This document shows positions 1 to 22,875 of a DNA stretch of 29,366 bases, one piece after another (position 1 is the first letter of the stretch; every line of letters begins with the position of its first letter). The position numbers and the translations under genes were made by a program. The stretch is from Piedraia hortae CBS 480.64 (Eukaryota), in contig MU005982.1 of the NCBI GenBank assembly GCA_010093745.1, positions 186,001-215,366 of the forward strand. The letters are read 5' to 3'. The notes beneath the pieces are model-generated. The model made no database searches. It was not told the DNA's origin and saw only the letters and a list, made by a program, of their open reading frames with translations.

Positions 1-318
1 ACACGACTGAGTCACCATGGCCTGCAAACTGTGCAAAACGAGAGTTCACCGGCATTGGGCTGGCCTGGGCAAAGTTTAACGATGCAAAAGCAACCCTGAG
101 CCGTAAGCAGTCAATCCTGGCAAAAACCAGCCCTAACAACCACGCAACCCAAGTGGAGCGTCATCCATGGCTGATAGCCACGCCCCTGGACTGCAGGCGG
201 GATCTCCCCGTCGTGCCTGTGATACAGCGTCGATGGGATTATGCGGCTGCAGGGAATCAAACCCTCTTTCTTGGATGCAGGCACTTGATTCGCCTATTGA
301 TTTACTTTGTTCAATCCA

Positions 319-1016
319 TTACGACTGCCGCTTTAAACGCTCATTCAGCCGCCGCTTCCCTCGTCGCGTCTCGAAATGTGAGGGAATGGTGCTTGGCTCT
401 TGTTCCTGTGACAACATGACCTCACGCAACTTGTTCCTGTATGCGTCCACTTCCGAGAACGTCAGCCGCGGCCGCAAGCCAAGGGGTGGGAAGAAAACCT
501 ACGGGATCGCTGCAAGAACAGTGTCCGGCCGTTGAAAATCCGTACCTGACCCCAGGATATGCGATAGCCCATCTCGTTTAACGCCATCTCCTCCTGCCTT
601 CGCCGCTTTGTCATGCGCGGAACCGACACCGCGGTCTGACCCCCGACGGGTAGCATTACCGACACTGTGGTTTGACGCCGAACACAGGGTTTACTTTCAT
701 CGTCCGCATTCCCAGCTCCAGGGTTGGAAGCCACCTCATCATCGTCATTATCCCAACACTTGGGTCTCCCTGGCGAGTCGGAAGGCGATCGCATCTGGCG
801 CGGGTAAAATGTGCGCGGGTACACTGAGTTCAGGCGCAGGTGCGAGTCCGGCATGTCGTCCATCTTGACGTTATCCAGCGTGGCCCGCACTCGCACTCGC
901 ATGTTGCGTTGCAAGTCATCCACGATGATAAACTTGCGCCGCTTCGATGGCGTCAGGTCGCCGAAGAGGAGACGCGCCGTCGCTCGATCCTCCCCAGTCT
1001 CGGCTAGCTCATCGGG
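319..1016 (-). CDS. C-terminal half of the same conserved fungal protein (second copy of the domain)
   Basis: Frame of ORF 462..1133 gives KRRKFIIVDD..RVRVRATLDNV..NSVYPRTFYPRQM..EMALNEMGYRISW..FLQRS. Intron 450-502 (GTAGGT..GCTGAC..AAG) continues it as LDAYRNKL..HFETRRGKRRLNERLKRQS, ending at TAA 321-319. A candidate acceptor CAG lies at 1019-1017, but the 5' boundary is uncertain. Confidence 0.75.
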
Positions 1017-1338
1017 CTGGTGGCTCGGTGATTGAGCATCGTTGCCTCCTCTTACCGACGCCGACTCCATTAAGGGCCGCTGGGTGGCCTTTCGCCTTCG
1101 TAACGCCCAAAGATCTTCCCCACAACCCCGCACCCCGCATTCCCCGCAACACGTCTTTATCCCTGCACAGCCTCCCTGTTGACAGCCATCAGCAACCCGG
1201 CACTGGAATCACACCCCTGCTCAAGACATTGACCCTGCTCACTAACATCACGACTTAGATACTGGAACAGACACGACTTTTTAAGATACAGACGAAGCTG
1301 ATAATCTACGTAATAATGCACAGTAAATATACACCAGC

Positions 1339-2946
1339 CTATGACCGACTATGGGTCAAATACTGCGGCTGCTGGTTCGCGATTGGAGACCAGCCCGGGC
1401 CGATTGACGTTGGTGGAGCTTCGCTCCTCATGGCGGGACTGGGGACAGCCGCCACAGTATATGGCAAATTCTGTGTCTGAGCCATTGCAGCTTGTCTCTG
1501 ATTTAACTTCGCCTGGCGCCGCACTCTCCGGCTGCGCAATCGTGGATCCTGGTTACTGTTACGCCAACTGTCGACGGCCCGCTGAATAAGACCGCGTTTG
1601 TCGCGTAAGTTAGGATTCAGCTTCGCCAGGGCCCAGCCAACCGAATTGCACTCCGTCTCATAGACGCGTCGGTTACCCTTGTAGTGGACCTTGTACGCGC
1701 GCGGGTACACGCAGTTGTTGGATTTGAACTCATGGCTGAGTTCGTCGACGTTGACAGACTCCACATCGCAGCGAATCGTGTACTCGTGCTTGACGCGATC
1801 GCGAGAGTATTCAAACGCGATCCATTGTACGCCATTGTCGTCCTGTCGCACAACAAGAGGAGTGGTTGCGGGGATAGGGCCCGGAGCCGGACCAGATCCA
1901 TGCGCGTTGGACATGGCGCGCTGCAACGGTTTAGCCTCAATGCTCCGGTTCCGGGGACGAGCTTGCCCATTGCCGTCCTGCTGGTGCTGTGATGTCGGCG
2001 TTTGTTGCGAATGTTGTCGTGTTTGCGGCTGTTGCTGTTGCTGCTGCTGGGGAGCCTGCTGCTGCTGGTGCTGTGACTGCGGTTGAGACTGCTGTTGCTG
2101 TTGCTGGTGTTGGTGATTCTGGGGCTGCTGGGGCTGATGTTGATGTTGGTGATGCTGATGGTGCGGAGGTGGAAGTTGCTGCAGTGGCTGTGGTGGCTGC
2201 GGTTGGAGATGCTGATGCGGGGACTGCAGAGGAGATCGGTGTGTTTGCTGCATGTGCGACGGGTGAGGCGTCGGCAGCGATGGTGGATGCTGTGCCTGGG
2301 AGATGGCCGGAAGATGCGTCATCAGCATGCCTGGAGCCGATGTGATGCTCGGGTGCGAGCTGTACGGCGATGGGGGGTGCATCTGGTAATGCTGATAGTA
2401 TGCCATGGGAGGCATAACAAACAGCGGTCTCCCATGCGCATCCGTGTGCGGCGAATGGAGAGCTGGAGACCCCGGCTGCGGGCCCTGGTACGTGGTGATG
2501 GGCGGATATGCTGGACGACCAAGGCTAGGCGCAGCCATGCTGTCGGGCGCTTCTGATACCGATTAGCGACGCCGTGCGACCAACGATATCCAGGTCGACG
2601 TACCGCTATAGCTGCCAGGGGCGCTATGATTGCTATACTGGCTGGGGTGTGCTGCGTAAAACGACTCGGCAGCGTGGTGAGGGATATATGTGGACTGCTG
2701 CGGCGGCGGCGGTTGATGCTGCTGGGCCAAGACCTGCGGTGAGTTGGGGCGGTGTGGTTGGAGACGCGACACGTGCGGCGGTGGGAGGCCGCCGGAGAGA
2801 TTCTGTTCTCGTCAGCAGGGTTCGCGAGCCATTTGTTTGCTGTCAGAGACTGCCGGAGCATTTGGACGCTGGCGCGGGCGGCGTACATGACGCAGTGCAA
2901 CGGCGCATCGTGCGTGCGTCGTGCAGCTGCTGTGGACCTTGCCCAT
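1339..2946 (-). CDS. Conserved fungal protein of unknown function, N-terminal half (Gln/His/Pro-rich region plus conserved domain, recalled as DUF8032-like); probably one gene with the 319-1016 half
   Basis: ORF 1339..2538 contains PATTPLVVRQDDNGVQWIAFEYSRDRVK..YTIRCDVESV..NCVYPRAY..ETECNSVGWAL..KRGLIQRAVDSWRN. Two canonical introns extend it upstream in frame: 2553-2603 (GTACGT..GCTAAT..CAG) and 2803-2886 (GTACGC..GCTGAC..CAG). The candidate ATG at 2946 is tentative. The family name is from memory. Confidence 0.8.
1975..2230 (-). repeat. Coding low-complexity CAG/CAA/CAT-rich tract (polyQ/H/P)
   Basis: Runs of gct/gtt/gat triplets on the + strand translate as HQHHQHQHQPQQPQNHQHQQQQQQSQPQSQHQQQQAPQQQQQQQPQ. 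Confidence 0.9.
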
Positions 2947-3873
2947 CCAGGCTAGTCGCTGTCCACTGCAGCCTCTTAACCCAATGGAGAAATAAAACGA
3001 AAAGCAACAAGGAAAAAAGGAAAAAAAAAAAAGAGACATACCATGTCGCCCAGGGACAGGGAATGCGGCTGTCAGGACTGGGGGGCCTGGCGGCTGATGA
3101 GGCTGACAGGTGGGCCGATGTGCGACGGGGGAAAAAAGGTCGGGAGTGAAAAGTCGATCAAGGGCAGGACGCGGAGGTAAATCCGCTATGCTTTGGGCAG
3201 AGATGACGAGCGCGTCCAAGATGTGGTGCGCGTTGTGTATCAAAAACGAACGGAAGAGAAGCGGTACGACCACCCAAAAAAAAGCGCCAAAAACTCAGCT
3301 ATGGACCCGAGCCGTGCCTTATACCAGACCAAGGCCAGACCGGGCCCGCATGCTGCCGGGCCGTGGCGACAGGCGGTGTCGGCGGTGCGCGAGGCAGGAG
3401 ATTGGCAGGCCCATGCACCAAGGCGGGGCCGGCGTCCCCGGCATGGCGCCCGTTTACGTTTCACCCGTCTGTCAGACAATACGGTGGCAGTTTACGTCGA
3501 GCTGCATGCAGCTCATTCGGTTGGTGTTTCATCAATGTTGGTCAAGAGACTCATCAACTTCTATACGTCATCCAGCCAGGTGCTGTCAATTGCCCATCAA
3601 AATTTTGCCATGCGGCTGCTAGCCAGCGTGACACCCATCAAAATCCCCATCAACCTTCCCGTCCCGACTATCCGCTACAACCGCAGCGATCCGCCTGCCT
3701 GGTTGCCTCTTTTGTCTCCTATCTCCTGCCGACGCCTCGTCTCACAGTAATACCGATGAAGAATCACGGCACTGAATGCCAGACTCAGGGCGAGACCCTG
3801 CCGGGTCTTGAGGGAAGCACCGCCACGCCTCAACGGCCGCCACCGAGCGCCACAAAACAAGGCGATTGTTGCA

Positions 3874-3890
3874 TCACGTGACTTCACGTG
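3874..3890. promoter_or_regulatory. Two tandem E-boxes (TCACGTGA, TCACGTG) 10 bp apart; possible bHLH sites
   Basis: Sequence tcacgtgacttcacgtg lies about 0.9 kb upstream of the minus-strand gene. Function is inferred only. Confidence 0.3.
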
Positions 3891-5384
3891 TACCTTTTAC
3901 GCCCCGCATCTGCATCCCGCCCGTTCGCTTCCAACTGTCCCTCGTGATACGTCGTCGTCAGCTCTCTGAGCCGCACCCTGTCACGCGCCTCTCGTCTCTG
4001 TATCACCGTTGCGGCTGCCTGTTCGTGCGGCTCATTGAGCTTCGTAGATTTGAGTGGGTCCAGTCGTCGCCTTTGCGCGACGTCCGATTCGCCTGGAGCA
4101 TTCTATGTCCAGTCGATCATCCCCAGCAGATCCCGGTTTCCGACAATAGACAGACATTCAGTGGCAACGGCAACTGGTGGCAACTGCATTGGCTCTGTTC
4201 ATTCGACGAGTCATTTCGGTGAATTTTAATTTGCCCGAATATCGCCGTCCAATCACGATGACCTGTCCGCCTGTTCTGTAGCTGCACCATGCCGTAAACG
4301 GAGGAACCTCTAACGTTTTTTTACGCGTTGACGTTGATCGGGTTTTCAGCTGGGCAGTGGGAACCTTACCAACTGTGTGATCGGCCCCCTGTCTGAATGA
4401 CTTTTGCACCGTCATTGCATGGGCTACCTGGGAAAAGCTTGCAGCTCAGCTCTCTGTCGACGATTGACCTAGACTAATTCCACTTCAACCTGTCGCAATG
4501 CTTCTACCCTTTTCGGACTTTTCATAGGTCACTGAATGATCCAACCAGGTGGATCGTCATTGATTTTCAGATCCCATGTTGAATCCTTTTCCCCTGCCCG
4601 AAACAATCCTGCTAGGCGGATCAAACAAGACGCTGCCCAACAATGATCGTTCTGCATCGAATGCATGCAAGCAATGAAGTAAGTAGATCGAGTCGGGAGC
4701 GAGTCTATGCTGGTCCACCATTGATGAAAGTTCCATTTTACAGTGCCGCCTTCCGAGTCCACAGTGCTGACCTTCAAGAGGCCATTCATCACCTGCAGGA
4801 AGATATCTGGGATCTCTCATCGTTACTGCGCCAAACAATCTGGTTGAAACCGCATGGCCATCTATCTCAGAGACGCAATAACCCGAATATGTCACTGGCG
4901 ATCTACTCCAAACTCCCCACTAAACGAGATCACAGTTTCCATTCCTTTCCTCTTTGCGGAAGCAGCAATCGGATAGGTACCTTTCTTGATATCTACCATC
5001 CATCATCATATTCCAACGACCAGCATAACACCTACCACGTGATGTTCCTGCATTAAGCCAGTACCACAGCTATATACGTCGTTGATAAAGTACACGTTAG
5101 CATGTCAGCTCCGCCATCAGTTTCTGATCATGTATGTGCGTGCATGAGGCTTCTGCCACAACTATACCAGACGTTGATATAGTTCCACAAATGACTGTCA
5201 AACTCGTCCGACATGTAACATCCAGCCTTTCCCCTCACTTCACTACAGGACAAGGGGTTTGTTTACCCTCTGCAACTCCGCGAGATCATCACCCCGCGCA
5301 ATCGACTGAACGATGTCCACCTCCACCCTCCCAAAAGCCACATCCAATTTTCTTCCAACCAATTGTTTACAAACTACCTAGCTT

Positions 5385-8300
5385 TTAACCCATCCTTAGA
5401 GCCATCTCCCTAAATCCCTGCGGTACGGCCCACCCATGGGTCTCACAAGACCTTAGGTATCCCTCCGCGGCCTCTTTAACCCCGTAATCCGAGCCTGCGA
5501 CTCTATAATCCAGCCTCGCGGGGGGATGGCTCGCAATCGCCATCCTCACTTGCATCAAAACACTCTCCATGCTCATGGCGCTGGACCATCCCGAGTTTGT
5601 CAAGAGTTCCATGCATAGCGCTCCACCGATTACCACGTGGCCGCCTCCGCCTTGAGCGAGCGGCAAGAGACGGGGCCGGATGACGCGGATGTAGGGCGGC
5701 GACCAAGGGTAGTCTTTGTTGAATCGTAGCTCGAGGACGATGCTTCGTATGCCTGCGCTGGACATGTCTTTTACCAAAGCGAGATTGGGGTCCAGGAGGT
5801 GGAAGCTGTGCAGTTCTACGATCCATTGGTACACGTTGTTCAGATTGGTGGTGTCCATATACCATCCTAGGTCGCCAAGGGAGGGGCTTTCGCTTTGGAG
5901 TTTGTTGAGGATTTGGATCTGGCGCATTAGCTGTTTAGTTGTTTGGGGGGAGGCGTAGGTTGGTAAGGGGAGAATTGGAAGGGTTGATAGGTCGAGGGTT
6001 CCTGGGATGAAGTCCGTCTTGGAGTTGGGATGCGGTTGGGGTTGGGAAGGCGGGAGGCTGTCGGGGTCTGGTTTCAAGAGAGCGACGTCTTCAGGTAGGG
6101 TCGTGTCGCTGGATGCACTCAGTGAGCGGGAACGAGTGATTATTTGCTTCAAGTTGAGCCATCTCGAAATCCTTTCTTTGCTGCTATGGCTGCAACTGGA
6201 TGTGATGGTGATTGAGGGGATGCTGATCGACCCGTTGAGTCCTATTGGTGTATGGCTAGGATCTTGAGGGTACGAAACTGGATTGGGCTGGAAATTGTCT
6301 GGCATTCTCAAGGCATCGCTTCCGCACCGGACAAAGAGATACCGCACCTGGATCCAGTCAAGATGCTGCACGACGTAGTATGGCTCGTTGCGTTCGAATT
6401 CGTTTGGAGCGTTGACGAGCTCGTTCAGAGCCAATGCGGCTTGCACCTGCAGCTCTGAGGATGGCCAGGTTATATCCGTGCGTCCGTGGCAGTAGGTCAG
6501 GGACGTAGCGGCATCCCGTGCATGATACACCCCGTTGCCGTAGGTGCGGCCGTGGGAAATACGTAGGTAATTGAGGCCCTGGCGCAGAATCATGTGCCAG
6601 TTGAAAAGTGGACTACCATGGAAGGCAAACATGGTCGGATAGCGCAGGGACAATCGCTGAGCCGTCCGGTTTACTTCCTGGGCAAACCGATGCTCCTTGT
6701 CGGGGGCGCCCATTGCGATCCTGAACTGTTTCCATCCGACCATGCCTGCAATCTGCTCCTGTTGCTGTCCAGTGGCTGCAGTGCCAATCTCCATGATACA
6801 AGCCCGGTTTGTCGCCAGAATCCATCGCAGCACAGTCAACACGCTCGGCGAGATGCGCGTTGTCCACCGCTTCAGCATCCCTCCAGGCGCATTTGTTCGC
6901 AAATATTCCTGCATGGCCGTTATCGACGGCAGCGTGCGTAACAGTGAGGAGATGCTTTTGCATTTGTCTGTCTGGTTCATCTGATCAAAATCAACCTCAT
7001 ATGGCGCCAACTTGGCGGCTGCCCTTTTGAAGTATGTCATCTTTACGTGCTTCTCCAACGTCGGCGTATCAAATATGATGGTGGGATACGAAGAAGTGTC
7101 GATGATTCTGCAATGGACATCGTATACGGACTGGAAAATGTTTACCCAGCTGCCCTCCTTAATGGGCCACTGTCGAGCACCAGTTTTGACGAACGTAAAC
7201 CTTTCTTGGGGCATGTCAAGAGTGATCTCATACATGTTTTCCGTTCCGGTTACTGACGGTACCAGGATGCCCATCTGGTCGGGAAAGAGTTGCAGCGTAA
7301 AGCCCTTGGCACTGGCGTAGCAAACGGAGATCAACAGGTCCACAACATTGGGCTGCGTCATGATCTCATGTTCAATGTTGGAGCCTAAATCCAGTGCAAC
7401 GTATTGATACAGGCAAATGGCCTGATCACAAACGTACGGCTTGATCGACTCATGGTCCGGATTGATTCTGCGATGGCAAACACTGCAGTAGGCGGTGCAC
7501 CGGACGAAACGTCGGACAACAAAGCGCATAGCCGTCAGCGGGAACGAAATGGACAGATCTTCGGTATCATCACCACGGACAATCGTCGGTTTCTCGTCCT
7601 TCATCGCCAGGTATCTGGACAGATGTGCGTTGGTGATATCTGCCCCAGCTTCCAGCTGATAGTCTTGAAAACATGCCTCCGCTCCCCTCCAGCTAAGTTC
7701 TTTCTTGCGTAAACGCACCATGATCAGGAAAAGATCTTTCAGAAGATTGTTCAGCGATCGGGAAAAGAACATCTCTGCTAGATCGTCGTCTCCCGGCTCA
7801 GGCTGAGCCTCCTGTGAAGCTCCGTTTTGAGCCTGCCCATATGCCCGCATTGCATGTGCCCATGTCTTGGGTCTGTAACGTTTGGAGACAAAAACTCGCA
7901 TGTCTACATACAATGGACCAAGTCTAAGCAGGTCGTCCATGTTTTTGTAGCCTTCTGGGTAGAGCAGCATCAATATCAGATACCTCTGCGGATCCATTTG
8001 CCAGGCCCGCAGGACCTCTTCAGTAAGACCGAGCCTGGCCACGCGGATAGAGACGGCCACAAACGCCTTGACATTATGCAATATGTCTCCCAGAGCACCG
8101 ACCTTATAGCCTGCATCCCGCACGGCACGAAGGTCGGACCGTATGCGTGCATGAATGGTTGGATGATTCGTTTCACGGTCCGTGCGGTCGCTTTCGTGCT
8201 CAAAGAGGGCATCGTTGTCATTGGCTTCTTCCTCGTCTTCGGATGAACTCTCTGATTCACTTCCGCCGAGCATATCTACGTCTCGGTCAGGTTCTACGGA

Positions 8301-8624
8301 CCACTTGTGCAACGCTCTGCCGACCATCTCGATCAGTTGCCCAACCGTCTTGCTCTGTGTTCCTCGCAAATTTTGCAAAACCCCGCCGATGTCATCGTGA
8401 GAGTCGTCTTTGGCATAGATCATATATTCATGATTTTTGGGGTAACTGTCTAGTTGTGGGATAAAGGCAGTTATTGTGGTTGGGGTACCAGTCTGCCCCA
8501 CTGGACTAAAAGTAAACTCCAGCTCGCCGTCATCATCGCCTTGTTTAATGCCGTGGATGCCGACTGGAGCATTGCCGCTAGCTTTGGCCTTTTCCAGATC
8601 AGCTAGAAACTGGCGTCGTGGCAT
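5385..8624 (-). CDS. Fungal PARP-domain/ubiquitin-conjugating enzyme fusion (PARP6/8/16-like mono-ADP-ribosyltransferase plus C-terminal UBE2Q-like E2)
   Basis: Uninterrupted 1079-aa ORF. PARP motifs: FHGS (6623-6612), HGRTYGNGVYHA, PYYVVQHLDWIQVRYLFV. PARP6/8-like Cys cluster: YCSVCH..KPYVCDQAICLYQY. UBC domain: IVLELRFNKDYPWSPPYIRVIRPR..GGHVVIGGALCMELLTNSGWSSAMSMESVL, with the catalytic Cys codon at 5615-5613. Confidence 0.93.
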   Translation of the reverse strand: MPRRQFLADLEKAKASGNAPVGIHGIKQGDDDGELEFTFSPVGQTGTPTTITAFIPQLDSYPKNHEYMIYAKDDSHDDIGGVLQNLRGTQSKTVGQLIEMVGRALHKWSVEPDRDVDMLGGSESESSSEDEEEANDNDALFEHESDRTDRETNHPTIHARIRSDLRAVRDAGYKVGALGDILHNVKAFVAVSIRVARLGLTEEVLRAWQMDPQRYLILMLLYPEGYKNMDDLLRLGPLYVDMRVFVSKRYRPKTWAHAMRAYGQAQNGASQEAQPEPGDDDLAEMFFSRSLNNLLKDLFLIMVRLRKKELSWRGAEACFQDYQLEAGADITNAHLSRYLAMKDEKPTIVRGDDTEDLSISFPLTAMRFVVRRFVRCTAYCSVCHRRINPDHESIKPYVCDQAICLYQYVALDLGSNIEHEIMTQPNVVDLLISVCYASAKGFTLQLFPDQMGILVPSVTGTENMYEITLDMPQERFTFVKTGARQWPIKEGSWVNIFQSVYDVHCRIIDTSSYPTIIFDTPTLEKHVKMTYFKRAAAKLAPYEVDFDQMNQTDKCKSISSLLRTLPSITAMQEYLRTNAPGGMLKRWTTRISPSVLTVLRWILATNRACIMEIGTAATGQQQEQIAGMVGWKQFRIAMGAPDKEHRFAQEVNRTAQRLSLRYPTMFAFHGSPLFNWHMILRQGLNYLRISHGRTYGNGVYHARDAATSLTYCHGRTDITWPSSELQVQAALALNELVNAPNEFERNEPYYVVQHLDWIQVRYLFVRCGSDALRMPDNFQPNPVSYPQDPSHTPIGLNGSISIPSITITSSCSHSSKERISRWLNLKQIITRSRSLSASSDTTLPEDVALLKPDPDSLPPSQPQPHPNSKTDFIPGTLDLSTLPILPLPTYASPQTTKQLMRQIQILNKLQSESPSLGDLGWYMDTTNLNNVYQWIVELHSFHLLDPNLALVKDMSSAGIRSIVLELRFNKDYPWSPPYIRVIRPRLLPLAQGGGGHVVIGGALCMELLTNSGWSSAMSMESVLMQVRMAIASHPPARLDYRVAGSDYGVKEAAEGYLRSCETHGWAVPQGFREMALRMG

Positions 8625-9670
8625 AGCTGCGATGTGAATAAGGTAAAAGGAATGGTGATCGCCAAAAATTTAGCACAAAGAAGCTGATGGTTGGATTGGG
8701 TTGATGCAAATCTCACGATTAGTTATGCTGAAACAAAGTGTGGTTGCCAAGACGCTCAAACTTCTTGTAGAGCAGTGCAGAAGAGTGGTCAGTGCACAGC
8801 AACATTTCATTGTTCGCCACGTCAAAAGTCACCGCGTTGACACCTTTCTCAGTGGAAACCGCGATGATGCAGCATGAGTGAGTGTCCAGTAGAATCGATT
8901 GTTAGACAAGTGCTGGGTCAGTCATTGGTACTAGCACTGGCACCGACATGCACTGACCGGTACATGCCAAAGTCTACAAAGCGATGTGTGGCTCTGCACA
9001 AAGTTTCCCCGCGCAGACACACTTATTCCAGTTGTACCCGAACACGCATTTCCTCGAGGTTAAGCTCAAACGGGGAGCTTTCGTGCACACTACAATTAAT
9101 CCTTGAATACTCGCCTATAAGGTCACTTTCTACGCCTCATGGACATGTAATTCCAATAAAGTTCCAGTGACACCGATCTCTTCGCCTTCGCCCTGCCCAA
9201 CTGCAAGGCTGCCGGCCCGTGCCGTTCACTACGGCCCGTCCCGCTTGACAGACAGGGAACGTCAGACCTCAGATGCATTCAAGCATACTAGCTGCTCAGA
9301 AACAACCTTGGGCGGATCGCTCATGGCACGTTGATGGCAGAACTACCTGGAAATATAATTCATACCCACGAGCCTCTCCCAACGGCTGCCAATGATTGCG
9401 TTGATCCCTGTCCAGGGTGAGATATGCGGGGCATTGCGCCCTGCACTAATATCCCTGGACGATGACGCAAGCCATAGCCTACCCACAAGTGAACAGTAAT
9501 GTCGGGGATCGTTACATGAAGATTAACCAACACTATGAGTCAGGGATAGGCGGCCATGATTGCCTCAGCCTGAATTTATCAGATGCTTTTCCAACGGAGA
9601 CTCAATTGTGCATCACCAACTTCCAAACTCAATACCTACGAACTACAATTAACAGGGGAAGCCAGCAATT
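8625..9670. promoter_or_regulatory. Shared divergent intergenic region, possible bidirectional promoter
   Basis: 1046 bp between the two divergent start codons, with no convincing ORF. Confidence 0.5.
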
Positions 9671-12600
9671 ATGACTCCACAAAACCTACTCATCCTTACC
9701 GATGCCACTGCGTCAATGAGCCCCTTCCTCACTGCCCTGAATGATGCTCTGCCTGAGATCATTCGAATGTCACATCTAACAGGAAGTTATTCATCGATTG
9801 GCGTAATCGCTTACCGAGACTACTGCGACGGTGAGCTTCTCGAATGGAGCGGCTGGTACGACTGCGAGAATTCCAAAGGTCGAGAGGATAGGCCACAGCC
9901 TGCGGTCTTGCCCTATTTAGCCAAAGATTCTAAACTGTCAAACCGCAGTCTTCCTTCAATTGACCCTTTGAAAACCACGGACTATGCTTCCCTCCTTGCT
10001 TTCGCTGCTTCTCTTGAGGCAGACGCCGGCGGCGACTACCCCGAAGCTCTGAAAACCGGTCTCTGTGCGGCATGTCAAGCACTTGAGGGCGTAAAAGGCG
10101 ACACAGTGATGATGCTCTTCGCAGATGCACCACCTCACTTGCCCTCAACCGCCGAGGAAAACCTCAGAAGAGAAGAAGACGCACTCCTCAGCCTTCCCAA
10201 CGGCTCTCCATTCATCGACTGGGTCACTGCCTGTGCCACCATGGCGAAGCTTGCTGTTACAGTGTATGCGCTGGTATTTGAAATGCATGGGGACATCAAA
10301 TCATATGGAGGTATTGAACCGCTCATTTGGTTGACTTCAGCGACTGGTGGAATATGTCTCAATGTGGATGATGAGGATGACCTCGCGGAGGCAACTATGG
10401 CCGTCCTACTGGCCCGCATGGGCTTTGATAAGGGGAAGGAGGTCTCGCCTCCAAAGCTTGGCACCATTTGGGCGTTTGATATAAAGCCGTCGGCGGCATT
10501 GAAGAGTGAAGCAGATGCGGCTGCATTTCTTCACCAAGAGGGGAAGGAATGGGTTGGTTTTGACACTTTTCCCGTCACAGCTGAGGGGATTGGGAGCTTT
10601 GTGCCACCCTCAGCTTAGGTCATGGATCTCGCGGCGAGGTACAACATGGGGGAGACGTACCGGCAGCTCGTTGTGCAATGTTTGAAAGAAATTATTCAGA
10701 ACAACGTTGAAGCCATGAGGCTGAACGCCGTCTTCGGCACACTCTGGCGGGCTGTCTGCGCCGATAGGGCGAATACTGAGAGAGATGGCTTGGTCTCCTT
10801 GATGAGTTCCAAGGTTGAGTGCATTGATAATCAGGCAAAGCGAGAGAAGATGAGGTTCTGGTTGCAGACGTCGTACGACTACACAGGCGAGATTTTGGAG
10901 GCTGTGGCGAAAGTTTCCGAGGCAGAAAGGTTCCCCTGCGTCTTCCTGGCGCCCGAATTTGACAGCGAGGTGAAGTTCACAAGAGCGGAGCTTCTTGAGA
11001 TTGGTAGATCCTGTAATCGAGCCGTCCTCGCCCGTCTGGCACAGGCCTTAACCTGTCTGACTTTTGCTGAGAAGGAGGAGGATGCACCACGAGACGCTAC
11101 CTTTCTGCCCCTTGCCCTAATGAAACCAAATTACGGTGGCCGATTTTGGAAACTCCTACTACACCTCATTGTCCCTGGTACGATGCTCGCACCTAGACCG
11201 GCTGCTCTACTTGCCGCTGTGGCTATCAAGATAGGAATCATCTCTCTCTTGTCATCTGCCCAAGATGAAGTGCTTGCTTTCAAAGGCAAATGGAACAATA
11301 TCCACACATCAGAGACATGGAATGTTGGCTGCCTGACTCTTCTGCTTGATGCAGACGCCAATGCTGGTAATGAACTCCTCCATGCACACGATCGACGACT
11401 GTTCCAATTACTCGTCGACTACGTTTTGCTTGAGCGGAACTTGGAGAGTGAAATCAGTGCTGAGATGGGCTGGCGGCCTAGCAAGACACTCGCCTGCATC
11501 GGGCCCACCGTAGTTTGTAGATCATGCAAACACCCGCGCTCAGTTACCATCATGGCTAAGGATGGGACATGTGGCATTTGCATTGATCCAAAGAGCTGCA
11601 ATTGCCCAGCATGCACCAAGGAAGGACCGGAGACTCGAGATGTCGGTGTCTCTTCAGAGGCTGTCTACTGGTTCGAATGCTCGGTCAAGAAGTGTCTGGC
11701 ACAGTATGTTGTCTACAACATCGGGAGACTGAAAGCCAAACCGAAGTGTTTTTACTGTCGACACAACGGCTCCCCGTCTGCGCCTACGATCCAATGCACC
11801 AGATGTTCAAGCAGGGTCATTTACCCTGATGCCTACCGTTCAGCTATGTTGATAGAAAGCGAGTGGATATGTCCGGCTTGCAAAGACGGTAACGTTTCCA
11901 CAATCATCACCCGAAACATCACCCTTCAGGTCTTGATCATCGAAAATGGCCCAGACTTCCTCATCTCAGGGGACGTGCCATCCACTCTCTTCACCGGCGT
12001 GAGTCTCTACAAAACCTTGACCGCGCGCGGCACCACAGATCTGAACATCAAGATCCTACCCACCGTTAGCAACAATGAGCCGGCGCCGAGACTCGTCTAC
12101 CAAGGTAGAGTCATCCACAACGCTGAAAAGCTGCTCGTAACCCTACACAACCTCATCCGCGCCCGTGGATCATCCCTACCGCCATGTTCCCTCTGCTTCG
12201 CCCCCTCGGGGCACACACGAACCTGCGGCCGCAACTCGTGCACATCCCTCCTCTGCGCGTCCTGCGAGCAAGGATGGTACGATCTCAACCGTCCAGGACG
12301 CGCCATCAACCCATCGGCGCTCAAATGTCCCTTTTGCCGACGCGATCCAGCTAAACCACCCCATCGTGCCTTAGCAAGTATGAAGTGGGACGCTGCCATC
12401 GTATATGCCTGGTGTCGCAGCTGCAAACGTGTCCAGGAGATTGGTGAGAGGGTCTGCGGCATCACTCCAGAAGATGTGCAGAATTGGGATTGCGAGGAGT
12501 GCGCTCCTCACATTCATGGTAAGGGAGAGACGCAGCGCCAGTGTCCCGGGTGTGGAATCTGGACGGAGAAGATTGCTGGGTGTGACCATCTTCGCTGTGT

Positions 12601-12697
12601 GGTGAGGTCGTGTGGAGTGCATTGGTGCTGGCTGTGTAGGTTTCGTGCTGAGACGGAGGACAAAGTCTATAGGCATTTGAGGGAGGTGCATGAGTAG
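9671..12697 (+). CDS. vWA domain + multiple zinc fingers + RBR-like (RING1/IBR/Rcat) E3 ligase-like protein with one in-frame TAG at 10616-10618; may be a recent pseudogene, spliced or recoded
   Basis: ORFs 9671..10618 and 10622..12697 share a frame and are separated only by TAG GTC. vWA motifs: LLILTDATASM (DxTxS MIDAS), IAYRDY, GGDYPEA, FADAPPH. C-terminal Cys clusters include CSLC..CGRNSC..CASCEQGWY..CPFC (RING-like), CRSC..CG..CEEC, and CPGCGIWTEKIAGCDHLRC...CGVHWCWLC (Rcat, G-C-x-H Cys at 12581). A frame-preserving intron is possible at 9856-9948. Confidence 0.82.
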
Positions 12698-13043
12698 GGT
12701 GTTTTGAAGGGATTAGAGAAGGGATGGCTGCTGGCTTTAATCTCATTTCTGGCTGTGGATAAAGATTGAGGGAATGGTTGAGCGATTTAACGCATAGGAT
12801 CAAGGGATAAGAGTATATGTTGCTCTGTTGTGTACAGATCAAACACAAGTGTCGTGTCCCCGCGGGGGGGTATTGTTTGGAGCGGCTCCCTGTGAAGTGT
12901 TCTTCGTTGAACCAAAGGTGGTGTTGTCCACGTCGCTCTGCGCAGCGGATGTCGGGTTCCTTGGTCTTCCACTTCCTTTTCCCTTTTCCCTTTTCACCAC
13001 ACCCACCTCACTGAACCTCCCTACGCTCAAGATATCGTTGATC

Positions 13044-13380
13044 ATGTCACAGGACCACCAGCCAGCCGAGCAAACCGATGAGATTGCGCAGTACATGGCC
13101 TCCCTCACGGCGCGCATGCAGGAGCGATTGAGAGAAAGCTAATGTGTCCTAGAGGAAAGCGCTCGTCTTCGGAAAACCATCATTTCCCAGTTGAAAGATA
13201 GTATGACGTACCTGGAAGCATGAAGTAGGCAGCCAAGAGAAAATTATACTGGATTGCGAGACCAACTAGCTAAGATAAAAGACACATATGCGGGTGTTAT
13301 CTCCAAGGACACGAATCCTCAAGAGGTTATTTCTCAAATCAAGAATAATACCTCAGCTTCCTTTCGTCCCATGATCTAGT
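13044..13380 (+). pseudogene. Decayed coiled-coil-like ORF of unknown family
   Basis: MSQDHQPAEQTDEIAQYMASLTARMQERLRES*CVLEESARLRKTIISQLKDSMTYLEA* remains protein-like across stops and follows a pyrimidine-rich leader (about 12960-13020). Confidence 0.4.
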
Positions 13381-14459
13381 GACCAAGAATTTTCTCTTCG
13401 CGGTTGCTCTTGCGATCTGCATGTTCCTGTTGCTTCAGTAAATTGTCAATGGCAGACGCTGATCTTCACAAGTGGGCAGGAAGACGCTGATGGAGGACTG
13501 CACAGGCGAGACCGACCAATTTCAAGGTTCGGAATCACGTCTCGTCCGCAGCCGCGCCGTTGCTCCGGCAAGCATTGCATGGTAGAGAGGTCCGTTCGCC
13601 TTCCCAACCACCAAAAGGTTGTTAGTAAATTTCAGTGTAGTATACCGTTCCGCACAGCTCTCAGGCAGTTTCGCTGCCACCATCAGCTTCGAATCGTTCC
13701 AAGGCTTCAGACCTTTGTCCGACCCTTGGTACGCCTGTCAACGCGGCGGTCACTCTGCAAGGGTTTGTAACGCCCTTTACGTCAAAAGGCTTCGCCTCGA
13801 AGCTGTCAGTGGGAGGAAAAAGAACTCAATATCAAAGTCAATATCTCTAGATGAATCATGTTCTGGGAGGAAACCCTCCTGACTAATTACATGAGAGGAC
13901 TATGTCCTCAAATCCTTTCATATCATCATCTCCTTAATTCGGAGACGGACCCGCTCTCAAAAACCCTTCCGAAAGCAGCAGACTTCTGACCAAATCCCAA
14001 CCCCTCACAAGAGGCAATGGCGACACGCATTCACCGTCATTAGGGACGAGCCCAGCGCCAAAGCAAATAGCCGCGTGGCATGGCTCCCGTATACTCAACC
14101 CGGGAACAAAGCCGCTTAAGCCAGCTGTTCCTCTGGCGGAGGATGACCCCATCTCAACAATGGCACCACCCACTACCGGCGATATCCACGATGTCCAGCG
14201 GTGTCCCAAGTCCTACATATGGACATGCCCCCTCCCTGACTTTTAGAATCTGCTTCTGACGGTAACGTCCGTCACTCCCTGGCCGCTTTCGATGATCACT
14301 AGCTATACAAATTTCACTAAAAAAGCTTGCTGTTGAACCAACATCTTGCGCAAGCGTTGTTGGAAACCTCGCCATTATCGCTACTTGTCCAGACGGGACC
14401 CTCGTTTGCTGGACTATATCCCAATGCGAGCACGTCTCCGTCTTCCCCACAAACTCTTA

Positions 14460-17400
14460 TCAATGGGCCACTTGTGGAAGGCGTGGTTTACTGTGGATTC
14501 TACAAGCGGCTTTTGATTGGGCAATGTCGAAACGAATGGTGCGGGTAACCCGTACCGCCTCCCTCCATTTCGTCGTTCAAGCCCCACTCTGTAAACCTCA
14601 CACGCCAGCGCTGTCGAGGCACCTTATGGAGGTAAGACTGCTGTTAGTGTTGTAGATTGAGCTGTAGATTTGACAGCTCATCAACCCGCTGATTGGGCGA
14701 GTTCAGTAAAGCCAATGGTAGATTCATCTGATTCGTGTGTCGTCTGGCGACATCATTCGCAGACGTGCTCCCACAGTGGCTGTACCATTTTAATCGTCAA
14801 CTTATCAGTGATACTCTGATGAGAACATTCTTGAAAGTGGTAAAGGAGCTTGCAAAGATCCCAACCAGACTCAAAGTACCCTCAATGGGAAGACTGAAGA
14901 AGTGTCGTAAAACCATTCCCAAACCTCAGGTTATTCGTCGCGAGACCAAAGATGAGGCACCAATTCATCAGATTAGTGTGCTTGGCATTGAACGCATGCA
15001 AACCTGTAGGAACATACAGAAGTCGTCCAGTATCCCGATTTGGTGGAGCAAGTGGCAACCTCGACTGATGGGCCTGCTTCGAAAAGTTGTTCCGAGATGT
15101 GGCACGGCACCAAGTGGCGCTGGGAGCTACGTATACAGCGACCTATGAAGATTTTCCGGATCTAAGGGAGGCCAGTCAGTATCTGGCTTGGAGAAGTCCT
15201 GCGGATGAACTCATCCAGCTCGACCAGATACGCCTTGTATTATGGCCTGAAGATTTGCTCTAGCCTGCAGACATAGGCAAACGTGACATATTTCATTTGA
15301 GCGATTCCGGTAGTCTGTTAGAGCCGGTGAACGGGTGCATCCAAGGAAACCGAAGTTCTCTATTCTTACCAAGGACGATATGTTGGAGGTGAGCGAGACG
15401 ACCGTGGTTTTCCTCGAAGAGACCCAAGTTATGGATACCCGGGCCAAGGAAGATGTTGAGTTTGTTCCGCAAGATGAAATGCCGCGCCATGAGGACTTTG
15501 GTTCATTGCTGCGGACCCCATACACGGCAAAGAAGTTCTACACGAAGCATGACGCCCGTGTTGTGCAGCTCAATGTCAGCTTTTGGCAGGACGGGGTAAG
15601 TGCGGCGCGAGGAACACGGTGGAATCACCTGGAAGTGTGGACTATGAATTCGACTGGCTTTTCACGCAGGATGAGTCTTGGCTTTCCATTCGAACAAATC
15701 ATTGTAAGAACTGAACCTAATGCGCGACCTGGTCTAGCACAATTTCACGTCTCTGCCAACTACTTTGTTGCGGTTGGTGCCAAGATGAAGGCCACCAGTA
15801 TGCTCCGTGGGCTGATGCCGAATCTGGTTCGGCCCCAGCGCGGCGTGCGGGCCTTCAACTCGCGCAGTGGCCGCCCTGTGATCATCTCCGGATGCGCCTG
15901 TCGGTTCATGGCCGATAATCCTGCCGCGGCGGCGCTTTGCTCGATCCGTTGGCATGATTTCTATTGGCGCTGGGCAGTATTCAATCAATGGAAGGACCTT
16001 ACCGATGTTCCCAGTCTGGGGTTGCTACGACATACCAAGGGATGAACTTCTCAACCTTTGCCAAGGAAAATGGAAGAGGTCCATGATTGGCCTGCCAAAT
16101 TCTTAGATTTCCGCCCCTAAGATCCAACGTCTGCGCACTCAGCTTCCTGCAACGACCCAAACCGCGTACAACAGGCTGGTCAGCACGTATGGCCTGAGAT
16201 GAAGCCGGAAGGAATGCCGTCAATTCTCTAGATGTCCCGGATCTACATCATGTGGAGTGGGCTCTTTCGTGCAATGCTGGGAAAGCAGCACGATATTCCG
16301 CGTCAACGCGATCCTACGACAGGTTAAGACACTACAGAGGGCGATTGCCCTAGTTGAGGAGTTCCTGACTGTGGCTCCCCAGAGCGCCAACGAAGGCCAT
16401 TGTGCGTCGGTCAAAGTCACCTTGCTCACCTCGACACGAGGTTACAAAATCGTCCCGATAGAGAATCTGGCCCGCGTTCTCAATGTCATGCATTTGCGTG
16501 GCGAGTGGTGTGGCGCAAACCAGGATCTCATCGCTTATCGAACAGAAAAGCAGATGGCCCCTGGTGATGTATGGCCGCACGAGGTAGAGAGCGCGTCTAG
16601 CCGCTGGATGGCCAATGTCCATATGATTAATCTACATAGCTGATTGGGAGGCCAAGCATGACAGGGTTTCTCCACCACCGCGTGGCTTTTGACAGTTTTG
16701 ATTCATTTTGCACACGTCGATGAAAGGTCCCTTATTATGTAGTTTCGGAATCTGGTATTTCATGTCCCCGCTGTGACAGTCTCGATCTTGTCACTTGATT
16801 ACTTTCCCCCGGTTTCTCAGTTGTGATATCCCAAAGCGGAGCATCTGATAAATGCCGAACTTCAGCCTGAAAACGTGTCCGGTGACAGGCTTGTGCCAAG
16901 CAACCTGTCACAATCCGCCTTAGGGAGGATAAGCGGGAGGATGAGAGTTCGTCTTGAGTTGCCTGCCAGTGAGCCCGCTTTGTAATACAGTACTAGGCGC
17001 ACATTTGCCTGAGCAATCGCTTATTTCAATTCTGGCATTGAAGGACCTTCAGGTCTTATTCAAACGAGTGTGTCCCTGCACCAGCCTGCCCTGGCGGCCT
17101 GATGTGGGCTCAGACTCATATCTTGTCGGTGGAGTTAACCTCCGAGGGCTAAAGCGGAACACAGGTCAAGGACAAATGTGTGCACTTGACTCTGGCCCAA
17201 TGGTGGCTATAGATGTCTATATCTATGTGAGGTTCGAAACCTCCACACTATCTCAGTCTAACCGCATTCAGCAAGACAACGTCAATTAACCATGCCCTTA
17301 AGCATGAACGAGACAATGACCCTTCTCAGCGAAAACTTCCTCTATAGAGGTAAAAACCTTGAGAAGTTTTGACTCCTGTATAGGGTTCTAGTGATGTTGG

Positions 17401-21316: not shown

Positions 21317-21485
21317 TGACGTCAATACCACTCGAGGAAAGAGTCGGCAACACATCCATCGAGGGTAGGCAGTAATTAAAGCCCGCTTGAATTTACAAAG
21401 ATAGAAGCACAGTGCTGGATGGCCTGATTGTTGCATTGATACATAGTTCTGGTGATGATATGACGCAACTGCGCAGCTACGTCAT
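21317..21485 (+). promoter_or_regulatory. Cluster of CRE/ATF-like bZIP sites upstream of the oxidase gene
   Basis: TGACGTCA 21317-21324, TGACGCAA 21461-21468 and TACGTCAT 21478-21485, all within about 260 bp of the ATG. Confidence 0.4.
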
Positions 21486-21573
21486 TGCTGGCCGACTTCC
21501 GACGGGTCATAAGATCGGGAATGAGTTCAGTAGGAGAATTTTACCCCGAACAACCTTAACCAGATCATTATCA

Positions 21574-22875
21574 ATGGCGTACGCAACCACAGTCAATGTC
21601 GCAACGGATCTCAAGCCAGTTTACAGCCGCAAAGGCATCTCCAAAGAAGCAACGGACAAGACCAATGAGCTTTTACAGAAGAATCACGACCAGTTCAACA
21701 TCTTCTTCAATAACAAGGGGTTTCACAACCACATTGCACATCACCTACTCACTATTTGGTCGCTGAGAGCTACTGAAGATCAGGTCGTTCAAGCGTTCAA
21801 GGACAATGAAAGTTATCAGATGCCGGCGAAGGAGGTGCATGAAGATGTTTTAAAGGAGCTCTACGACCCCAAAAAGTTCTCTGAGTCGCTCGGCGTGAGA
21901 GAATACTACCACGAGTTTCTTATTTACTTTCAGAAAGAGATTGAACAGTTGGGCTGGCAGAAAGCCATCTCGAAGCATGTGTTGGAGGAAAGTGAGAACA
22001 ACATGTTAGTCAGGCTTTATGCGGGACTTGTGCACCCTATCATCCATCTCGGATTTGGGGTTGAGTTTGAGCAACCCGCCATTGTTGCGGAAGCGCTGGC
22101 AGAAACTGCTGTCCACAGAGACGATCTCGCCGAATTCTTCCACGACTCTGAGAAGCTTGCGAAGGAGAATGATGACAAGTCGCCAAAGTCAATTGTCCAG
22201 ATGTTTGATGCTATCTATGAGGAAAAGACGCTTCGAGACGCAATTGAATTCAGAGATGAAGACAAGTTGGGTACTACTGAACGGGGCAAGATCGGAGACC
22301 GTGTGAAGAAATTCGCTTCTCAATTCCATGTGCAGCCAAACGACCTAGAGAGGAAAAATGCGGAGCTGACAAATGCTTCTGCATACCTGATGGGCGCAGC
22401 CCCACGCCCTAACAAGATTGTCAAGTTTGACTTTTTCCTCATGCACACCGTGACTAGCTCCATTTTCCTCTCCGCATTTCTGAGACAGGACTGGATCAAA
22501 GATTCTGACAAGGCTCGGCTACTTGCGTGGAAGTCAAGATATGATTTGGTCGAGTACGTTGCACGAGGGGCGCCGGAGTTGCGCATTGAGGTGATAAGAA
22601 ACTACAAACCCAAACAGCCATCAGGGTGGGACGTTCTCGAGGATCGTGTGGTGGCAGTACCCGACGATGGGCATGCTGCTAAGACCGTTCGAGCCCTGGC
22701 TCACGGCCAGCGCATCTGCGAGCCCTACGAACATCGACCGGAGTTTCGCATCAAGCATGATGATTGGTTGCAGCTAGCTCACATGACTATTGACTCTGTT
22801 GAGGGACCGGGAGACGAATGGATTCGGAACACGGGATTTGATGAGGCTTGGAAGAATGTTCCTGCACGCCAATAA
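21574..22875 (+). CDS. Questin oxidase / AflY (HypA)-family oxidoreductase (DUF4243), 433 aa, no intron needed
   Basis: Motifs LLQKNHDQFNIFFNNKGFHNHIAHHLLTIWSL, RLYAGLVHPIIHLGFGVEFEQPAIVAEALAETAVH, KFDFFLMHTVTSSIF, DDGHAAKTVRAL and WIRNTGFDEAW. The first ATG in a good context is at 21574 (tcaATGG). Confidence 0.92.
   Translation: MAYATTVNVATDLKPVYSRKGISKEATDKTNELLQKNHDQFNIFFNNKGFHNHIAHHLLTIWSLRATEDQVVQAFKDNESYQMPAKEVHEDVLKELYDPKKFSESLGVREYYHEFLIYFQKEIEQLGWQKAISKHVLEESENNMLVRLYAGLVHPIIHLGFGVEFEQPAIVAEALAETAVHRDDLAEFFHDSEKLAKENDDKSPKSIVQMFDAIYEEKTLRDAIEFRDEDKLGTTERGKIGDRVKKFASQFHVQPNDLERKNAELTNASAYLMGAAPRPNKIVKFDFFLMHTVTSSIFLSAFLRQDWIKDSDKARLLAWKSRYDLVEYVARGAPELRIEVIRNYKPKQPSGWDVLEDRVVAVPDDGHAAKTVRALAHGQRICEPYEHRPEFRIKHDDWLQLAHMTIDSVEGPGDEWIRNTGFDEAWKNVPARQ

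Follow-up and report, generated by a model that had tools for sequence, protein, structure and literature searches.

A single in-frame TAG, probably a recent nonsense mutation, interrupts a vWA-RBR E3 ligase homologue in Piedraia hortae

Genes that carry one in-frame stop codon and are otherwise intact include the ordinary young unitary pseudogene or nonsense polymorphism, and the premature stop corrected (PSC) pseudogenes of Fusarium graminearum such as PUK1, AMD1, FgRID and FgAMA1. According to the excerpted parts of two accounts, the latter are intact, transcribed, Pezizomycotina-restricted genes with a single in-frame UAG and an open frame downstream (PMC10776026; PMC11156358). The same excerpts report that about 71 F. 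graminearum genes have a UAG corrected to UGG and that fungal A-to-I mRNA editing favours U at -1 and hairpin loops, as a preference and not a rule (PMC11156358). They further state that TGG is the main precursor of the TAGs in PSC genes, with other codons as frequent ones too, and that some PSC genes reach high abundance in hyphae (PMC10776026). We analysed a 29,366-nucleotide stretch of Piedraia hortae CBS 480.64 (contig MU005982.1, positions 186,001 to 215,366; this whole stretch is called the window, and coordinates refer to it), in which a homologue of RBR-type E3 ubiquitin ligases with an N-terminal vWA domain is interrupted by an in-frame TAG. The TAG is probably a nonsense mutation of recent date in a vWA-RBR E3 ligase gene of one exon that is otherwise intact and apparently transcribed, which would make the locus a young loss of function. 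With an ordinary young unitary pseudogene or nonsense polymorphism it has in common one stop, no other lesion, an apparent transcript and a family that is otherwise uninterrupted, and on present evidence no difference from that class was seen.

Direct reading of the plus strand gave GCT TAG GTC ATG at 10613-10624, with the A of the stop codon at 10617 and TTAGG as its context (10615-10619). The frame begins with an ATG at 9671, which is preceded by an in-frame TAA (9650-9652), and consists of 315 sense codons, the TAG, 692 further sense codons (1008 codons in all) and a terminal TAG at 12695-12697. Translation of the whole frame revealed no second internal stop and no frameshift, which bears out the sequence-only reading, where the TAG was described as the sole lesion in 1008 codons with an ATG two codons further on. 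This ATG (Met318) lies 3 nt after the internal TAG and has G at both -3 and +4. Since both sides of the TAG are homologous, in the same frame, to one protein family (114 family matches and colinear alignments), the locus is one interrupted gene, and two open reading frames (ORFs) that adjoin by chance are not what is seen here. The coding sequence bears no signature of repeat-induced point mutation (TpA/ApT 0.51, (CpA+TpG)/(ApC+GpT) 1.41). Reassignment of TAG to a sense codon was also considered and was rejected, because the same ORF ends in TAG and two other long ORFs that were checked end in TAA.

The TAG was compared with the contigs of two sequencing runs: X1, of kind 'DNA?', which may be the window's own source, and X2, from another sample and study, whose kind 'RNA?' is a guess. 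Over 5000-13932 the X1 contig had 0 differences from the window, TAG included, at a depth of 13.5, and a single 3319-nt contig of X2 ran across the gene with 0 other letters, 0 gaps and A at 10617 at a depth of 49. No joints were present in the contigs of either run anywhere in 5000-16000. X2 has no cover at about 9099-9368 and over most of 12688-13800, and those parts were not used as evidence; no inference was drawn from the end of its contig at 12687, 8 nt short of the terminal TAG, and its depths of 89.6 and 49 for two neighbouring genes were not used for ranking expression. Contigs lose rare variants and the growth stage of X2 is not recorded, so minor or stage-specific forms would be invisible here. 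Should X2 be RNA, then its consensus is that of an unspliced transcript running through both halves, with A at 10617; if it is DNA, it is a second genomic confirmation of the TAG. Because the TAG is found in both runs whichever is the case, an assembly error is unlikely and the TAG is genuine. An error of assembly or consensus, or a heterogeneous culture of which the TAG is one allele, could be argued from X1 being possibly the window's own source and from the identity of X1 and X2 over more than 7 kb, so that they perhaps come from the same strain; however, the two runs differ in sample and study and, at depths of 13.5 and 49, both show the TAG without any other letter, and such an artefact or minor allele is highly improbable. 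Two checks had been proposed from the sequence. The one for a sense codon in other sequence data returned the TAG from the contigs of both runs, with 0 differences. The one for a transcript junction or A>G at 10617 found neither in the spanning X2 contig, at contig level and with the RNA kind guessed.

To place the protein, the full translation with X at the stop was used as query and residues 150-550 were searched at E <= 1e-3, which gave 114 matching proteins with 32-43% identity, most of them covering 100% of these residues. Nearly all are 940-1240 aa long and come from Leotiomycetes, Sordariomycetes, Eurotiomycetes and some Dothideomycetes, and their source names are RBR-type E3 ubiquitin transferase, RING-type, and VWFA domain-containing. 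The top identities, leaving aside the window's own 692-aa product, were 38-43%. Two alignments, one of 25 sequences (A1, the window protein and 24 others) and one of 114 (A2, the query and 113 homologues), showed colinear full-length homology to family proteins of about 1000-1130 aa. Pfam VWA_4 matched the N-terminal part with E 1.3e-4 and 22 bits, below the cut-off of 27, and IBR_2 matched the C-terminal end with 26.6 bits, just below that cut-off; RING1 was not recognised by Pfam in the window protein. A profile built from 25 family members matched the IBR-RING2 region of parkin with E 7.9e-9 to 1e-6, and also ARIH1, HOIL-1 and RNF216. The DxTxS metal-site motif of the vWA domain is kept (D11, T13 and S15, all in family-invariant columns), as are all invariant Cys columns and the conserved C-terminal Cys/His pattern.

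An AlphaFold model made from the 25-sequence alignment (mean predicted local distance difference test score (pLDDT) 77.6, predicted template modelling (TM) score 0.52) divides the protein into an alpha/beta domain (residues 1 to about 250), an extension to about 309, a helical domain (320-592) and a zinc-finger-rich part from about 594. Foldseek matched the N-terminal part to the vWA domains of Rpn10 (target TM 0.70), integrin beta, ITIH1 and Cav alpha2delta, with E from 5.5e-6. In the model, codon 316 falls in a coil (about residues 310-319) that joins the extension to the helical domain. The sequence-only reading had put the TAG at the boundary between vWA and E3 parts; it is indeed in the coil after the vWA extension, and yet the RBR fingers begin only about 280 residues later (about 594). 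The window protein carries an insertion of about 35-40 residues within the vWA domain (about 9866-9985, residues about 66-105) that none of the 24 aligned homologues has, and residues 70-92 were modelled at pLDDT <50. On these comparisons the gene belongs to a family of vWA-RBR E3 ligases that is widespread in fungi, and within it is divergent (about 40% identity), with ligase activity predicted. The likeness to the RBR E3 ligases parkin and ARIH1/HHARI lies in the profile match to IBR-RING2, Pfam IBR_2 and the kept Cys/His pattern, and catalysis is putative. Where parkin and ARIH1 have Ubl/RING0 or an Ariadne domain, the window protein has a vWA domain at its N terminus and, in the middle, a helical domain of about 270 residues.

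The divergence of the protein was measured on both alignments. In A1 the other 24 sequences agree without exception at 156 columns, of which the window protein keeps 139 and changes 17, radically so in W249R, R139E, D327G, D427A and R676L. The statement that all motifs are intact was thus mostly right: it held for every conserved Cys, for DxTxS and for most invariant columns, and not for these 17. Downstream of the TAG, 109 of the 119 otherwise invariant columns are kept, and decay in the N-terminal half (7/37) did not differ significantly from that in the C-terminal half (10/119; Fisher p = 0.126). By the same count 23 of the other 24 sequences have 0-4 deviations and the mis-modelled P0026 has 13. 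At the columns of A2 that are at least 95% conserved, the window protein had 7 deviations (the median was 1), which put it only 12th of 114, and the higher ranks were mostly fragments. The protein is divergent and not extreme within its family, in which the reading frame is otherwise uninterrupted; the window gene has a TAG at codon 316.

The age of the stop was estimated from the number of stops that drift would bring. Of all possible point substitutions in the ORF, 3.4-4.2% create a stop, which corresponds to about 1.0-1.3 new stops per 1% of neutral divergence (3024 nt, indels uncounted). One stop and no frameshift are thus consistent with at most a percent or two of neutral drift. Since all conserved Cys and the 139 invariant columns have been kept, the divergence of about 60% from all homologues would have accrued mostly under constraint, and the stop would therefore have arisen late. 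The column aligned with the TAG was read in the 113 homologues: P in 83, A in 11, S in 6, L in 4, R and Q in 2 each, M, E, G and D in 1 each and 1 gap, with W in 0 and a stop in 0. The residues S, L, Q and E found in the column are each one step from TAG, and P is two steps away, so that the family column does not single out a precursor codon, CAG or other. The proposal of a CAG>TAG change fits best as regards a recent nonsense change, and its CAG is not derivable (Q in 2/113). A close orthologue or second strain was not found in searches of the protein family, metagenomes and relatives; the metagenome scan with the 692-aa product gave only one weak locus (L001), with 28% identity over about 130 residues.

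If the TAG is such a nonsense mutation, ribosomes would stop at codon 316 and release at most a 315-residue vWA fragment, which would lack both the helical middle domain and the catalytic RBR part. That the TAG is read as a stop is suggested by its also ending this ORF, and presumably no mechanism rescues it. The outcome would be a fresh loss-of-function allele or a unitary pseudogene, either fixed or segregating in the lineage. The explanations that compete with a nonsense mutation are each without positive support. Several points nevertheless weigh against it. TAG is the sole stop codon that fungal A-to-I editing turns into sense, the gene still looks expressed if X2 is RNA, and the 692 downstream codons are fully open; a UAG stop together with apparent expression and an open downstream frame would also fit a PSC gene as characterised in the excerpted account (PMC10776026). 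The data are contig-level and of unrecorded stage, so that editing, splicing or readthrough at a low level or in one stage would escape them, and the age and polymorphism of the stop were judged without a close orthologue or a second strain.

The alternative that survives best is editing of the UAG to UGG (Trp) by the Tad2/Tad3 complex (ADAT, an adenosine deaminase that acts on tRNA) in one stage, sexual or stress, so that the full-length ligase would be made only then; we regard it as unlikely. The UAG offers U at -1 and G at +1, as fungal editing prefers (the U at -1 is present in TTAGG as in any TAG), the ORF downstream is fully intact, and the gene appears transcribed if X2 is RNA. However, A is the letter at 10617 in the spanning X2 contig, albeit one of unrecorded stage in which minor variants would be masked, and no homologue has W at this column. 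In the minimum-energy folds this A is paired or in an interior loop and never in a hairpin loop: a 5-bp stem begins with it in the 41- and 61-nt folds, and the 101-nt fold has it in an interior loop just after a 9-12-bp stem. No fold beat its shuffles (z-scores +1.39, +0.79 and -0.54 for 41, 61 and 101 nt). An inverted repeat, about 10579-10587 / 10607-10615, was seen to form the 9-12-bp stem of the 101-nt fold (z -0.54), which ends right before the TAG.

The apparent position of the host also weakens the case for editing. The best named matches of two neighbouring genes, a PARP-UBC gene and a questin-oxidase-like gene, are in Mycosphaerellales/Capnodiales-type Dothideomycetes with 50-54% identity, and since they are no closer than that, the organism would be a poorly sampled Dothideomycete-like fungus, outside the classes for which mRNA A-to-I editing has been shown. 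The excerpted account records editing from Sordariomycetes and Pyronema, says that neither cleistothecia of A. nidulans nor apothecia of B. cinerea yielded it, and gives as an open question which Pezizomycotina classes have it (PMC11156358), on which this locus would bear if it were edited. Our literature search, judged by title and abstract, found no A-to-I editing in a Dothideomycete. The window gene is thus unlike the F. graminearum PSC genes in having no editing in its one spanning contig, no predicted hairpin loop at the site, a Dothideomycete-like host and a family with neither TAG nor TGG (W 0/113) at this position. The editing proposed from the sequence accordingly gained no positive support and was weakened by the lineage argument. 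It is likewise unlikely that the UAG is a stage-gated recoding site, by editing or another bypass, in one developmental or stress state of this Dothideomycete-like black fungus, with the full-length ligase made only in that state.

A functional split, namely a free 315-residue vWA protein with a function of its own, perhaps together with a 691-residue ligase started from the ATG at 10622 by reinitiation or an internal transcript, ranks lower again and is improbable. The ATG stands 3 nt past the stop with G at -3 and +4, and the vWA part is modelled as a complete domain. Against this, a Met at the Met318 column is nothing unusual for the family, which varies there (Q 40, L 13, T 11, A 10 and M 10 among 113 homologues), so that Met318 is most likely an ordinary internal Met, and reinitiation downstream of a 315-codon ORF is inefficient in eukaryotes. 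Contigs cannot reveal an internal transcription start. Searched without filters, the 315-aa part had 300 matches at E <= 1e-3; 150 of these were listed, the majority with a length of about 900-1240 aa. The 13 short members inspected among those 150 of 300 look for the most part like fragments of full-length proteins and not like free-standing vWA proteins of about 300 aa: most run past the junction and then stop, breaking off in the ..DFA.RY..NPVFG.. region downstream of it, or are cut. Family architecture hence lends no support to the proposed split. The idea of a switch between sensor-only and full-length ligase rests on the split, editing, readthrough or splicing, which are all less likely than a nonsense mutation.

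Programmed readthrough of the UAG, which would yield a small share of full-length ligase, is very unlikely. The stop is in a predicted interdomain coil where the family tolerates several residues, and a small hairpin is possible just downstream. However, UAG-G followed by GUC AUG is not known to match a readthrough context (such as UGA-CUA or UAG-CAR-YYA), shuffles equal the local folds in stability, and the same codon terminates the ORF.

The intron proposed from the sequence, or an exitron, by which 66 nt including the stop would be removed in some transcripts, is the least credible explanation, because at least 15 residues separate the flanking anchors in 24/24 homologues of A1 and 112/113 of A2, its 22 codons align to the family motif ..L..lP.r..PV.DFA, the model predicts a strand (297-302) inside it, and there is no joint in either run, the X2 contig being gap-free. 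The anchors were the columns of W294 and V317, and residues were counted from anchor to anchor since A2 put the query's PSA in insertion columns; the sole homologue below 15 residues (P0105) is an N-truncated fragment. As in exitrons, the ends are GT..AG (GTTGGT..TTAG), the length is divisible by three and the segment lies inside coding sequence. GTNNGT occurs only 6 times in the 3-kb coding sequence, and its being in such an in-phase position has a chance of about one in ten. Unlike exitrons, it shows no junction, its donor is weak (T at +3), and its ends are expected by chance: any TAG is a potential YAG acceptor, and the in-phase GTs 45-200 nt upstream of the TAG number 3 against 2.65 expected. 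No CTRAY branch site is present in the segment, where only CTGAG occurs (10581-10585, 34 nt from the acceptor); the splice motifs used are general consensus motifs and were not derived from this genome.

The coordinates of the features are collected in Table 1. The vWA-RBR gene lies head-to-head with the PARP-UBC gene, about 1 kb apart. The latter has Pfam PARP (1.7e-11) and UQ_con (1.6e-6) domains and homologues named UBC core or E2 Q-like, and the E2-like and E3 genes could be a functional pair with a common divergent promoter. At 21391-22875 on the plus strand there is an intact questin-oxidase-like gene (HypA/AflY-type), the one with best matches of 50-54% in Mycosphaerellales-type Dothideomycetes, and Pfam recognised no other secondary-metabolism domain near it. 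Pfam found 0 families in 72 other ORFs of the window of at least 90 aa. At 14800-16000 both runs gave many short contigs with numerous variant letters and a much higher summed depth, of up to about 128 (X1) and 763 (X2), with loose contig ends nearby at 13833-13841 and 15952; this region looks like a multi-copy repeat family, and a 243-aa ORF at 15314-16045 had no Pfam match. Positions 1-4000 are GC-rich (0.57-0.61, with a GC skew of +0.275 at 2001-3000) and have, on either strand, numerous long ORFs that overlap one another, the longest of 407 aa, with no Pfam family.

Table 1 Features at and near the interrupted gene (window coordinates)
Feature	Position	Strand	Evidence
Interrupted vWA / helical middle domain / RBR-type E3 ligase homologue, single exon	9671..12697	+	Translation, family matches, Pfam, model
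315 codons before the TAG: vWA domain and extension	9671..10615	+	Translation, Pfam, model, vWA fold matches
Premature in-frame TAG, codon 316	10616..10618	+	Sequence; contigs of both runs; aligned family column
ATG, Met318	10622..10624	+	Sequence; aligned family column
692 codons after the TAG: helical middle domain and Cys-rich RBR-type region, open	10619..12694	+	Translation, profile, model
Candidate 66-nt phase-0 intron GTTGGT..TTAG, rejected; coding sequence	10553..10618	+	Homologue alignment, model, no joints
X2 contig, 3319 nt, spans the gene without gap or difference	9369..12687	+	Contig alignment; X2 kind 'RNA?' is a guess
PARP catalytic and UBC (E2-like) domain gene, divergent neighbour	5385..8669	-	Pfam

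The vWA-RBR family is widespread in Pezizomycotina, yet no description of these fungal ligases was found in a literature search judged by title and abstract. Should the UAG be a stage-gated recoding site after all, restorative mRNA editing would extend beyond Sordariomycetes and Pezizomycetes and would be tied to a ubiquitin ligase that lies head-to-head with a PARP-E2 gene; if the mechanism were editing, this would be the first restorative A-to-I case in a Dothideomycete-like fungus. If, as is probable, the TAG is a recent nonsense mutation, the locus would be an ordinary young pseudogene, and the value for annotation would be that it is recorded as one interrupted gene, and not as two genes of 315 aa and 691 aa or as a gene with a 66-nt intron.

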